Part shown: positions 34,101 to 38,880 of the stretch, piece after piece
Layout of the letters: every line of letters begins with the position of its first letter
Numbering within the stretch: position 1 is the stretch's first letter
Program-made: the position numbers
Assembly: GCF_045037415.1 (NCBI RefSeq)
Contig: NZ_CP173438.1
Direction: 5' to 3' (one strand)
DNA length: 64,000 nucleotides
Origin: Escherichia coli
Lineage (GTDB): Bacteria > Pseudomonadota > Gammaproteobacteria > Enterobacterales > Enterobacteriaceae

Positions 34101-37100
34101 TTCAGAGACGGACTCGGACGTAAAAAGGTGTTTTGCCATATTTAATATCACCTAAAGAGAATTTGGTTAGCTCAAACTGTTGTGTGGATTTTCTGTGGTA
34201 GCGGATCCTACCACGACTCTGCAGGTTAAAAACACTGGCAGTCTGAGTGTTAATCGGTATGGATGGATTAACATCTGGATGGCTATTTTAGGTCAGTTCT
34301 TCACCCAATTTCCACTTTTTTTTGAATCGTGTCTCATTCTGTTAAAAACGTGGCTGGAAATTTTTCCTGACAATGCTGGCATTCTGCGTATTTATCTTTT
34401 GCAATTTTCTGCCATTGTGGGGTATAAAACGCGGCGCGCGGCTTAAATAAAAAGCACACGACGTTTCTTTCGTGTTGCCACTTCCAGCCGGGTTGAAAAC
34501 AGAGTTTTGGCTTGTGGGTTCGTCTTAACAGGCGGCCGTGGAGGTGATACGAAATAATGAACCGTTGTCTGCTGCTTAACCTGTCTCACCGTTCTGGTGA
34601 AGATTCGTTCCCCGCACTCTGCATCTCTGCTTTGCATACCTGCCGATGTTATACCCATCTCGGCGCTTCTCAGGATTCAAGAGCTGGTTACAGCTACTGA
34701 GGACTGAACAAGGGCGCTCTTGTAAAAACAAGAGTTTTCTCGTGGTTTCGCCGAACTGTCACACTTACGTTCGGTTATGTGCTTAATAATGTTATGAAAA
34801 AGAAACCGGTTGCGCAGTTGGAGCGTCAGCATTCACTGCTGGAAAATCCATGTGCTTATGGGTTGTTATCGCAGTTCCAGGCTGCGATAGTCGTTAACTG
34901 TTTTACACTTAATAAAATAATTTGAGGTTCGCTATGTCTGACGACATGTCTATGGGTTTGCCTTCGTCAGCGGGCGAACACGGTGTACTACGCTCCATGC
35001 AGGAGGTTGCAATGAGCTCCCAGGAAGCCAGCAAGATGCTGCGTACTTACAATATTGCCTGGTGGGGCAATAACTACTATGACGTTAACGAGCTGGGCCA
35101 CATCAGCGTGTGCCCGGACCCGGACGTCCCGGAAGCTCGCGTCGATCTCGCGCAGTTAGTGAAAACTCGTGAAGCACAGGGCCAGCGTCTGCCTGCACTG
35201 TTCTGTTTCCCGCAGATCCTGCAGCACCGTTTGCGTTCTATTAACGCCGCGTTCAAACGTGCGCGGGAATCCTACGGCTATAACGGCGATTACTTCCTCG
35301 TTTATCCGATCAAAGTTAACCAGCACCGCCGCGTGATTGAGTCCCTGATTCATTCGGGCGAACCGCTGGGCCTGGAAGCCGGTTCCAAAGCTGAGTTGAT
35401 GGCGGTGCTGGCACATGCTGGCATGACCCGTAGCGTCATCGTCTGCAACGGTTATAAGGACCGCGAATATATCCGTCTGGCATTAATTGGCGAGAAGATG
35501 GGCCACAAGGTCTATCTGGTCATTGAGAAGATGTCAGAAATTGCCATTGTGCTGGATGAAGCAGAACGTCTGAATGTCGTTCCTCGTCTGGGCGTGCGTG
35601 CACGTCTGGCTTCGCAGGGCTCCGGTAAATGGCAGTCCTCCGGCGGGGAAAAATCGAAGTTCGGCCTGGCGGCGACTCAGGTACTGCAACTGGTTGAAAC
35701 CCTGCGTGAAGCCGGGCGTCTCGACAGCCTGCAACTGCTGCACTTCCACCTCGGTTCGCAGATGGCGAATATTCGCGATATCGCGACAGGCGTTCGTGAA
35801 TCCGCGCGTTTCTATGTTGAGCTGCACAAGCTGGGCGTCAATATTCAGTGCTTCGACGTCGGCGGCGGTCTGGGCGTGGACTATGAAGGCACCCGTTCGC
35901 AGTCCGACTGTTCGGTGAACTACGGCCTCAATGAATACGCCAACAACATCATCTGGGCGATTGGTGATGCGTGTGAAGAAAATGGTCTGCCACATCCGAC
36001 GGTAATCACCGAATCGGGTCGTGCGGTGACTGCGCATCACACCGTGCTGGTGTCGAATATCATCGGCGTGGAACGTAACGAATACACGGTGCCGACCGCG
36101 CCTGCAGAAGACGCACCGCGCGCCCTGCAAAGCATGTGGGAAACCTGGCAGGAAATGCACGAACCGGGAACTCGCCGTTCTCTGCGTGAATGGTTACACG
36201 ACAGCCAGATGGATCTGCACGATATTCATATCGGCTACTCTTCCGGCACCTTTAGCCTGCAAGAACGCGCATGGGCTGAGCAGCTTTATTTGAGCATGTG
36301 CCATGAAGTGCAAAAGCAGCTGGATCCGCAAAACCGTGCTCATCGTCCGATTATCGACGAGCTGCAGGAACGTATGGCGGACAAAATGTACGTCAACTTC
36401 TCGCTGTTCCAGTCGATGCCGGATGCGTGGGGGATCGACCAGTTGTTCCCGGTTCTGCCGCTGGAAGGGCTGGATCAAGTGCCGGAACGCCGCGCTGTGC
36501 TGTTGGATATTACCTGTGACTCAGACGGTGCTATCGACCACTATATTGATGGTGACGGTATTGCCACGACAATGCCTATGCCGGAGTACGATCCGGAGAA
36601 TCCGCCGATGCTCGGTTTCTTTATGGTCGGCGCATATCAGGAGATCCTTGGCAACATGCACAACCTGTTCGGTGATACCGAAGCGGTTGACGTGTTCGTC
36701 TTCCCTGATGGTAGCGTAGAGGTAGAACTGTCTGACGAAGGCGATACCGTGGCGGACATGCTGCAATATGTGCAGCTCGATCCGAAAACGCTGTTAACTC
36801 AGTTCCGCGATCAGGTGAAGAAAACCGATCTTGATGCTGAACTGCAACAACAGTTCCTTGAAGAGTTCGAGGCAGGTTTGTACGGTTATACCTATCTTGA
36901 AGATGAATAATTAAGATTATTCCGCTGGCGGGGCGATTTATTTACGTAAATCGGCCCGCTTTCTTTTTATATATTCTTAAAAATAATTTAGCTGCTTTTC
37001 TTATTAAATAATCTCCCTACAATCGCTGCATTAATTAAATGCAGAGGGAACGGTTATGAAAAAATGGAAATTACGTAGCGCGTTGATAGCATTAGCCGTG

Positions 37101-38880
37101 CTGCTGGCCGGTTGTTCCAGTAATGCGCAGTATAATAGCAGTGCATCGGGTAATGTCGGCACCGCCTGGGGTGGGGATGTGCACTCAACGGTTCAGGGCG
37201 TATCTGCTGAACGAGCCTGGCGCGATCCGGCAGAGATGATCGTTATTAGTTATTCGACTAATGTTCCTTCCGGCTACGACCGCGTTTATAGTATTCGTAT
37301 TAACGAACTGGAATATGCTATTCGCGATGGTAATTTTAATTCTCTACCTATTACGCGGGTTTATGATTCATCCAATAATGAACCACGCTATATTGTCCAT
37401 GCCAGAATCGGAATGAATTATCAATTATATATCCGTAATTACAGTCGTAACACCAACTACGAGATCGTTGCTACGGTTGATGGCCTGGATGTGCTGAACG
37501 GCAAGCAAGGTTCGCTGAATAACAACGGTTATATTGTGAATGCCGGAGATTCGTTAGCGATTAAAGGATTCCGCAAAGATAAACATACCGAAGCGGCTTT
37601 TCAGTTCGCCAACGTTGCTGATTCCTACGCAGCCAATTCGGCGCAAGGCGATGTGCATAATACCGGTGTAATCGGCTTTGCCGCCTTTGAATTACAAGGC
37701 CCGGCGCAAAACGCGCTGCCGCCGTGCTCTGGACAAGCGTTTCCGGCAGATAACAATGGCTATGCGCCACCACCGTGTCGGAAATAGCAACCTCGCTTGA
37801 TGCCTCGCCCATTTAAGGCGATAATTAGCACAAACTTGTGTTTCGCAAATCCAACCCTTCCTCGTCGGGCCTAACGACGCGGAAGGGTTTTTTTATATCG
37901 ACTTTGTAAAAGGAGTCCATCCATGAGCACCTTAGGTCATCAATACGATAACTCACTGGTTTCCAACGCCTTTGGTTTTTTACGCCTGCCGATGAACTTC
38001 CAGCCGTATGACAGCGATGCTGACTGGGTGATTACTGGCGTGCCGTTCGATATGGCCACTTCTGGTCGTGCGGGTGGTCGTCACGGTCCGGCAGCGATCC
38101 GTCAGGTTTCGACGAATCTGGCCTGGGAACACAACCGCTTCCCGTGGAATTTCGACATGCGTGAGCGCCTGAACGTCGTGGACTGCGGTGATCTGGTATA
38201 TGCCTTCGGCGATGCCCGTGAGATGAGCGAGAAGCTGCAGGCGCACGCCGAGAAGCTGCTGGCTGCCGGTAAGCGTATGCTCTCCTTCGGTGGTGACCAC
38301 TTTGTTACGCTGCCGCTGCTGCGCGCTCATGCGAAGCATTTCGGCAAAATGGCGTTGGTACACTTTGACGCCCACACCGATACCTATGCGAACGGTTGTG
38401 AATTTGACCACGGCACCATGTTCTATACCGCGCCGAAAGAAGGTCTGATCGACCCGAATCATTCCGTGCAGATTGGTATTCGTACCGAGTTTGATAAAGA
38501 CAACGGCTTTACCGTGCTGGACGCCTGCCAGGTGAACGATCGCAGCGTGGATGACATTATCGCCCAGGTGAAACAGATTGTGGGTGATATGCCGGTTTAC
38601 CTGACCTTTGATATCGACTGCCTGGATCCTGCTTTTGCACCAGGCACCGGTACGCCGGTAATTGGCGGCCTGACCTCCGATCGCGCCATTAAACTGGTAC
38701 GCGGCCTGAAAGATCTCAACATCGTTGGGATGGACGTAGTGGAAGTGGCTCCGGCATACGATCAGTCGGAAATCACCGCTCTGGCTGCGGCGACGCTGGC
38801 GCTGGAGATGCTGTATATTCAGGCGGCGAAAAAGGGCGAGTAAGCGCCAGATAAGAGGCGCACGGGTGATGTGTCATTAA

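Follow-up and report, generated by a model that had tools for sequence, protein, structure and literature searches.

The 64,000-nucleotide stretch of Escherichia coli contig NZ_CP173438.1 analyzed here (the window) carries, between the neighboring genes speA and speB, 877 bases that are extra with respect to K-12 (36911-37787, from the speA stop codon to the stop codon of a lipoprotein gene). With a probability of roughly 0.75, these bases represent an old single-gene cassette, polymorphic in E. coli, that combines a real outer-membrane lipoprotein gene with a speA terminator, and in which the inverted repeat in front of the gene does not mark a regulon. An earlier first-pass annotation of this DNA had placed a 243-residue lipoprotein open reading frame (ORF) with a lipobox in the speA-speB interval and had described speA and speB as directly adjacent in K-12. 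Both statements were borne out, the former by the ORF, its signal peptide, and its location, the latter by a comparison with the K-12 derivative DH1, in which the speA-speB gap measures only 137 bp and holds no lipoprotein gene.

The lipoprotein gene is real and already catalogued in databases. Its product forms a 4753-member E. coli cluster, is annotated in thousands of genomes, and shares a 90% cluster with the E. fergusonii protein. Between speA and speB, the gene is found in 3543 of 5426 complete E. coli genomes (65%), including O157, O55, O111, and E. coli W, and the 1.4 kb around it are 100% identical to O25b:H4-ST131 E. coli genomes. The ratio of nonsynonymous to synonymous substitution rates (dN/dS) is 0.20 against O157 and 0.05 against Salmonella; it is therefore a functional gene under purifying selection. 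A spurious ORF was rejected on these values and on conservation.

Borders and distribution of the cassette

The cassette fills the exact gap between the speA stop codon and the conserved promoter and leader of speB, and is ordered as speA terminator, AT-rich stretch, -10 box, inverted repeat, Shine-Dalgarno sequence, and a single coding sequence (CDS; Table 1). The hairpin at its left end (36927-36960), which is followed by UUUCUUUUU, has a predicted energy of -21.7 kcal/mol (z -3.49), and none of 200 shuffled sequences was equally stable. Across E. coli, Salmonella, Citrobacter, and Klebsiella, its stem of 14 pairs is 91% paired, and five of the 14 show compensatory double changes, a result matched by none of 500 shuffles and by no slid register. 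Judged by stem stability and by covariation across the four genera, the segment 36927-36969 is a genuine rho-independent terminator of speA, which is missing in K-12. By means of this second terminator, the cassette would probably lower read-through from speA to speB, and it is plausible that it alters the transcriptional coupling of the two genes, with speB keeping its own conserved, predicted promoter.

The terminator on the other side has a different history. The first-pass annotation had credited the lipoprotein gene with a terminator of its own, an attribution that did not hold: the hairpin (37853-37889, followed by a run of seven T) is real but is identical in K-12, where the gene is lacking, and near-invariant in Citrobacter and Klebsiella. 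Among the matches listed, its 17-nucleotide (nt) core recurs identically at 71 loci of Enterobacteriaceae and Erwiniaceae from about 70 species, at a distance of 56-212 nt upstream of speB, and it is kept there with or without the lipoprotein gene, while the outer stem shows compensatory changes (A-U to U-A, C-G to U-A). In Salmonella, the hairpin has remained next to speB, at a distance of 7.6 kb from the lipoprotein gene, and nothing hairpin-like was found 3' of the latter. Because it is shared with empty alleles, K-12, and the speB of Salmonella, the hairpin belongs to speB. Lipoprotein transcripts would end there as well, yet the hairpin did not arrive with the lipoprotein gene.

The whole speB module (37797-37894) consists of a promoter-like pair, about 27 nt, and the hairpin, which ends 28 nt before the speB ATG. 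A CTTGAA-N17-GGCGATAAT module before speB is conserved in most of the Enterobacteriaceae aligned, in occupied as well as empty alleles, and is not evident in Erwiniaceae, C. gillenii, or Salmonella. A scan of 34300-39400 against Rfam returned no match for the hairpin, which could act as a speA terminator in K-12, as a speB leader attenuator, or as a small RNA. It is the same from Erwinia to E. coli and could represent an RNA element with a regulatory function. In Salmonella, a 7-kb island that encodes a GntR-family regulator, a mannitol dehydrogenase, a zinc alcohol dehydrogenase, an Ldh-family oxidoreductase, a YhcH-family protein, and a hydrolase separates the lipoprotein gene from the speB leader; this spacer has thus accommodated a second insertion.

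The distribution of the gene speaks for its age. Homologues of 60-74% identity lie directly 3' of speA in Salmonella, Klebsiella, and Citrobacter freundii, and an occupied strain of Kluyvera sichuanensis has the gene at the same speA-speB site. In a survey of one genome per species, seeded by the exact 17-nt core of the speB hairpin, speA, the lipoprotein gene, and speB were then placed. Among the matches listed, 9 of the 71 speB loci are occupied, namely five in Escherichia (E. albertii, the E. coli reference, E. whittamii, and two further clades) and those of C. gillenii, Intestinirhabdus alba, K. spallanzanii, and Kluyvera georgiana. At 48 of the 71 listed loci, speA directly adjoins the speB leader. 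Empty loci include those of K. pneumoniae, Raoultella, Enterobacter, Pluralibacter, Trabulsiella, Pseudocitrobacter, most Kluyvera, and C. amalonaticus, and the site is empty in every listed Pantoea and Erwinia with speA on the locus.

Since the outgroup Erwiniaceae and most Enterobacteriaceae have speA beside the speB leader, the empty arrangement is, on the evidence of gene order, the deep ancestral state, and the lipoprotein gene an old insertion that is still polymorphic. Within Escherichia, the same evidence makes the occupied allele the ancestral one and K-12 a derived or alternative empty allele. The idea of an insertion between speA and speB thus stands in deep time, given the empty sites of Erwiniaceae, but not as a strain-specific event, as 65% of E. 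coli, all other Escherichia species sampled, and Salmonella are occupied.

A mobile element was rejected by plasmid and phage searches. The cassette comprises one CDS and contains neither transposase nor integrase, and no direct repeats flank it; matches of the lipoprotein on plasmids were mislabeled chromosomes or Burkholderia chromids; and among phages there were no enterobacterial matches, only some of 33-36% identity to half of the protein in phages of Rhizobiaceae. A GC content of 48% in the lipoprotein gene, against 55% in speA and speB, is the sole island-like trait. In a few E. coli genomes, including NZ_AP045810.1 (53%, in two places) and NZ_CP122317.1 (18%), only part of the region is matched, which suggests secondary disruptions or rearrangements of the cassette. 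A contig labeled Chryseobacterium sp. 18061 carries an enterobacterial speA (96% amino acid identity) and speB (97%) with the hairpin, and is probably a contaminant or mislabeled in its assembly.

Table 1. Features of the speA-speB interval and its neighboring genes, with positions in the window.
Feature	Position	Strand	Basis and remarks
speA (biosynthetic arginine decarboxylase), upstream neighbor	34934-36910	+	ORF translation MSDDMSMG...YLEDE; RefSeq annotation of identical DNA; 97.6% amino acid identity to Salmonella SpeA
speA intrinsic terminator, left end of the cassette	36927-36969	+	hairpin 36927-36960, then TTTCTTTTT; missing from the K-12 allele
Probable -10 box TACAAT, lipoprotein gene promoter	37018-37023	+	kept across genera; -35 poor; predicted promoter activity
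Imperfect inverted repeat CTGCATT-AATTA-AATGCAG	37026-37044	.	between -10 box and Shine-Dalgarno sequence; 8/9 symmetric pairs; 7-bp arms
Shine-Dalgarno sequence GAGGGA	37044-37049	+	read from the sequence; GAGGG 7 nt 5' of the ATG
Lipoprotein CDS, 243 amino acids	37056-37787	+	signal peptide 1-19; predicted lipidated Cys20 (codon 37113-37115); Ser at +2
speB promoter-like module TTGATG, 17 nt, GATAAT	37797-37825	+	consensus scan; predicted promoter activity
Conserved speB-leader hairpin/terminator: 15-bp stem, 7-nt loop, T7 run	37853-37894	+	hairpin itself 37853-37889; same in K-12
speB (agmatinase), downstream neighbor	37923-38843	+	ORF; RefSeq annotation

Downstream of speB, at 38860-39251, four tandem REP-like units contain repeated pseudo-ORFs of 78 amino acids and give sub-threshold Rfam matches to naRNA4 (CssrE; 38.7-50.2 bits against a gathering score of 59.5). 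The copy number of these units differs from that in K-12 and O157, because the alignment shifts after about 1 kb.

The inverted repeat before the lipoprotein gene

The first-pass annotation had described a perfect 19-bp palindrome in the promoter of the lipoprotein gene and had read it as the operator of a dimeric regulator. The sequence does sit at 37026-37044, but it is not perfect: the 19-mer is CTGCATTAATTAAATGCAG, its reverse complement is CTGCATTTAATTAATGCAG, and the pair formed by positions 8 and 12 is A/A. What remains is a 7-bp inverted repeat, CTGCATT and AATGCAG, around a 5-nt spacer, in which eight of nine symmetric pairs match. When the 145-bp intergenic region is shuffled with its dinucleotides preserved, 25% of the shuffles contain at least one repeat of this grade, and the window has 125 of them (about 2 per kb). 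The repeat at 37026-37044 was ranked last of the ten inverted repeats within a 1-kb stretch.

The proposal of a dimeric operator shared within a regulon was not borne out either, given a single genomic copy, symmetry at the level of chance, and no conservation outside Escherichia. A 30-mer that includes the repeat is present exactly once per genome in 3556 E. coli genomes and is missing from the remaining 1870. The search for the motif elsewhere, which the first-pass annotation had itself suggested, would list exact matches of about 17 nt or more; it found no second copy of the 19-mer, and hence no other locus, in the 5426 E. coli genomes. When only the arms were searched within the window, no other match appeared with up to one arm mismatch, and one further match was obtained at two mismatches (0.48 expected). 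By the refuting condition that the first-pass annotation itself had set, absence from other loci, the regulon idea fails, as judged from exact copies in whole genomes and near matches in the window. The repeat is unchanged (30/30) in 3294 of the 3556 genomes; the whole intergenic region is near-invariant within Escherichia, however, and conservation of the repeat there is therefore uninformative. In the orthologous promoters of Salmonella, Citrobacter, Klebsiella, and Kluyvera, the repeat is not conserved and unrelated sequence stands in its place, with the adjacent -10 box kept.

This -10 box occurs as TAC(A/T)(A/C)T or TATTAT at the corresponding position in E. coli, other Escherichia, Salmonella, Citrobacter, Klebsiella, and Kluyvera; the sequence around it diverges between genera while the box stays. 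It was not called in a consensus scan because no -35 matches. Further downstream, AGGG or GGGG persists in the leaders of the orthologues from Salmonella, Citrobacter freundii, C. gillenii, and Klebsiella, and Kluyvera georgiana has GGAGTGAAAGGAA. A sigma-E promoter was rejected, as inspection by eye revealed no GGAACTT...TCAAA motif upstream of the lipoprotein gene. The half-sites TGCAT and ATGCA of the repeat resemble the core of the half-site of NsrR, whose operator motif is gATGyAT-N5-ATrCATc (PMC1274295), but they are 7 nt apart instead of 5 and their outer A/T positions are C/G; an NsrR site was rejected on the spacing. The repeat is specific to Escherichia and lies at, or directly downstream of, the predicted transcription start; at most, it would be a local operator or a small hairpin in the 5' untranslated region (5'-UTR).

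Action of the repeat as RNA is the alternative that survives best, although it is still improbable. In this case, a small 5'-UTR hairpin abutting the Shine-Dalgarno sequence would stabilize the mRNA or tune its translation. Its predicted energy is -7.8 kcal/mol (z -2.3), with 8 of 200 shuffles equally stable, and the Escherichia variants AATGTAG (E. coli reference strain) and TTGCATT (clade MOD1) keep G-U pairing while breaking the DNA symmetry; two such wobble-compatible transitions would, however, turn up at random in roughly one case out of four. In Salmonella, this position is taken by another hairpin, CCCCCT...AGGGGG, which overlaps the Shine-Dalgarno sequence there, but no such structure was found in Citrobacter, Klebsiella, or Kluyvera. 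Moreover, a transcription start about 7 nt after TACAAT (near 37030) would leave the left arm untranscribed.

The lipoprotein family and its possible role

The protein begins with MKKWKLRSALIALAVLLAG/CSS, which comprises a basic n-region, a hydrophobic h-region, and the lipobox LAG/C. This agrees with the lipobox pattern [LVI][ASTVI][GAS]C of prolipoproteins processed by signal peptidase II, and the Cys is aligned in 37 of 37 homologues. According to the Lol rule of Enterobacteriaceae, a lipoprotein with no Asp at +2 after the lipidated Cys is sorted to the outer membrane. The sequence here is Cys20-Ser21-Ser22, and enterobacterial homologues have S or A at +2; with Ser at this position, outer-membrane sorting is therefore expected. 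After processing by signal peptidase II, the protein would be lipid-anchored to the outer membrane by Cys20. An AlphaFold2 model with a predicted local distance difference test (pLDDT) score of 83.8 is all-beta and forms a beta-sandwich, a domain that would lie in the periplasm.

Homologues from other genera of enterobacteria share 57-74% identity with the protein, and those found throughout the Alpha-, Beta-, and Gammaproteobacteria about 40%, with E values of 1e-154 to 1e-33 over 86-100% of the length. A profile search recovered 4109 representative clusters, that is, a large proteobacterial family. Thirty-five columns are invariant among 37 diverse homologues and include the motifs GTxWG, VDGLDV, GY, GFR, AxFxF, and a C-terminal FP...YAxPP; full-length homology with these invariant motifs places the protein in the uncharacterized 'outer membrane lipoprotein' family. 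In longer homologues, only low-complexity Pro/Ala-rich linkers are added between the lipid anchor and the domain, with no fused domains. Hypothetical proteins of the large Rhizobiaceae phages Phosso, RHph_I1_18, and Atu_ph07 are 33-36% identical to the C-terminal half (about 90-220, VDGLDV...GFR).

Database searches named no relatives of known function. Pfam had no match for the lipoprotein or for any of the 37 homologues, PADLOC none for the lipoprotein, and a sequence-profile search of the PDB none at E up to 1. Matches in NCBIfam and PHROGs were insignificant or confined to the signal peptide (12-17 bits in NCBIfam against cut-offs of 28-375). The predicted beta-sandwich had no informative structural neighbor, and a literature search by locus tags found no functional study. 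A large family with a confident predicted fold, many invariant residues, and no Pfam model is a reasonable target for characterization. Most likely, the lipoprotein would serve the cell envelope as a binding or inhibitor module without catalytic activity, dispensable in the laboratory.

No conserved operon partners were found among the distant homologues examined. Some of these stand beside DUF1161 or recO, one follows a PAAR-Rhs toxin pair, and one precedes an alpha-2-macroglobulin gene. In Variovorax and Acidovorax, a homologue together with an ORF of 122-129 amino acids is inserted between hisD and hisC, inside the histidine operon, which is another case of this family between housekeeping genes; the small ORF of Variovorax has a weak match to Rap1a, an immunity protein of the type VI secretion system (T6SS).

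These neighbors bear on a role that is unlikely but not far behind the RNA hairpin, namely that of an orphan immunity or inhibitor protein that would counter, in the periplasm, toxins aimed at the envelope or enzymes of the host (T6SS effectors, lysozyme-like enzymes, proteases). An outer-membrane lipoprotein with a predicted beta-sandwich and no enzyme-like fold, whose presence varies by strain, would suit such a role, as would its evolution, which is faster than that of its neighbors: amino acid identity between E. coli and Salmonella is 74%, against 98% for SpeA. The Rap1a match beside the Variovorax homologue, the PAAR-Rhs pair, and the alpha-2-macroglobulin gene point in the same direction, but this neighbor evidence is anecdotal, with one locus each and a weak Pfam match, and PADLOC returned nothing. 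In addition, a large number of residues do not vary between Enterobacteriaceae, Comamonadaceae, and the more distant long-linker homologues, which is unusual for immunity proteins coevolving with toxins. Synonymous sites of the lipoprotein gene, also cited for rapid evolution, are saturated between E. coli and Salmonella (proportion of synonymous differences, pS, 0.74; dS about 3.5, with a dS of 0.87 for speA); either codon constraint on the gene is much weaker, or the gene predates the split of the two species.

A polyamine-related role, such as the periplasmic binding or sensing of agmatine or putrescine, would explain retention between speA and speB, but it is doubtful; location is the only demonstrated tie of the lipoprotein to polyamine metabolism. 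The gene does keep the same position in Escherichia, Salmonella, Citrobacter, Klebsiella, Kluyvera, and Intestinirhabdus, and in Salmonella it stays with speA despite the 7-kb island before speB. A single ancient insertion, inherited or passed on by homologous exchange thereafter, explains this linkage, however. The gene also forms a separate transcription unit bounded by terminators, has been lost from a third of E. coli and from the majority of enterobacterial species, in which speA and speB are retained, and has distant homologues in the unrelated contexts described above (hisD-hisC, DUF1161, recO, Rhs toxin, alpha-2-macroglobulin gene).

Largely refuted, and the least probable of all, is a recent insertion in this strain with its own terminator and a dimeric regulator acting on a perfect palindromic operator shared with other loci: K-12 is without the gene, its GC content of 48% is below the 55% of the genes on either side, and the repeat, unchanged (30/30) in 3294 of 3556 E. 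coli genomes, lies 3 nt after the conserved -10 box in a typical repressor position, but 65% of E. coli and all other sampled Escherichia species carry the gene, the imperfect palindrome is within chance expectation, has no second copy in any E. coli genome, and is not kept in the promoters of other genera, the whole intergenic region is equally invariant in E. coli, and the terminator is part of the speB module.

Spacer haplotypes and comparison with known systems

The spacer left in K-12 is not a simple remnant of the occupied allele. The last 78 bp before speB are the same in K-12 and the window except for one base, with a perfect match from CAAATCC onward, and the flanking genes differ little, with 49 differences in 1711 nt of speA (2.9%, evenly spread) and a divergence of about 2.5% in speB. 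The 56-59 bp spacer of the speB promoter in K-12, which precedes CAAATCC, is by comparison only 66% identical to the window (37788-37848), with indels. The occupied spacer of the window recurs unchanged (100% identity) in E. whittamii and at 89% identity in E. albertii; because it is kept in these species, the K-12 spacer did not result from a recent deletion of the occupied allele. A simple recent deletion in K-12 was rejected, as the remaining spacer is 34% diverged.

The same pattern is found in Kluyvera sichuanensis, where an occupied and an empty strain share 97.3% nucleotide identity in speA, 95.1% in speB, and an identical hairpin, with a spacer identity of 67%. Spacers in the same state are 75-80% alike across genera, against 66-67% between states within E. 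coli or K. sichuanensis; one empty allele of Citrobacter groups with the occupied-type spacers. A spacer divergence of about 34% next to flanks of 95-100% identity suggests that the haplotypes are old alleles, or that they were exchanged between genera through the conserved flanks. A more ambitious extension is speculative and rather unlikely as a whole: the speA-speB spacer would exist as two ancient haplotypes, occupied and empty, maintained or exchanged across species, which set a different coupling of speA and speB upstream of a near-invariant speB hairpin, possibly a route for the control of agmatinase by agmatine or polyamines, and the lipoprotein would represent a large, undescribed family of periplasmic domains (about 4100 clusters) with a conserved function.

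Several points weigh against the old outer-membrane lipoprotein cassette as favored here, or against parts of it. The lipoprotein promoter has no recognizable -35 and no mapped start, which makes the position of the repeat relative to +1 a guess. The residues that are invariant across phyla (W38, R53, E136, D142, D145, R173, and others) could equally mark the active site of an enzyme, and no sequence match in Pfam, NCBIfam, PADLOC, or the PDB gives the lipoprotein a function. Furthermore, the spacer comparisons rest on 56 bp, and the species survey is a biased sample, drawn with an exact 17-mer seed from among the matches listed.

In terms of known lipoproteins, the protein is present in RefSeq and UniProt under generic names, as 'lipoprotein' in O157 (WP_000758914.1), 'Lipoprotein' (A0A1Q4PKQ4), and 'Outer membrane lipoprotein' in Salmonella. 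The window protein is 97% identical to that of O157 and 74% to that of Salmonella, with the same length and locus in both. Like Braun-type, Lol-sorted lipoproteins, it has a positive n-region, a hydrophobic core, the lipobox LAG/C, and no Asp at +2, whereas its mature domain is unlike Lpp, ActS, LptM, and other named lipoproteins, with no detectable relation. The beta-sandwiches of MATH/TRAF-like and fungal DUF7918 proteins are structural neighbors only (3-20% identity, with scores too low for homology); these proteins are eukaryotic and intracellular, and the best-scoring ones are themselves without known function.

As originally posed, the lipoprotein gene matters little: it is a catalogued accessory or variable gene, and its palindrome points to no regulon. 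Greater interest attaches to two by-products, the conserved hairpin of the speB leader and the diverged haplotypes. The speA-speB locus of K-12 (b2938/b2937) shares with the window the flanking genes, the speB leader hairpin, and flanking coding sequence of 97% identity, and differs in being without the 877-bp cassette, that is, the speA terminator, the predicted promoter, and the lipoprotein CDS. K-12 is the odd one out at a textbook locus. In ST131 and O157, speA and speB are 0.9 kb apart with an additional terminator in between, and conclusions on the co-transcription of the two genes that were drawn from K-12 may fail in most pathogenic E. coli.

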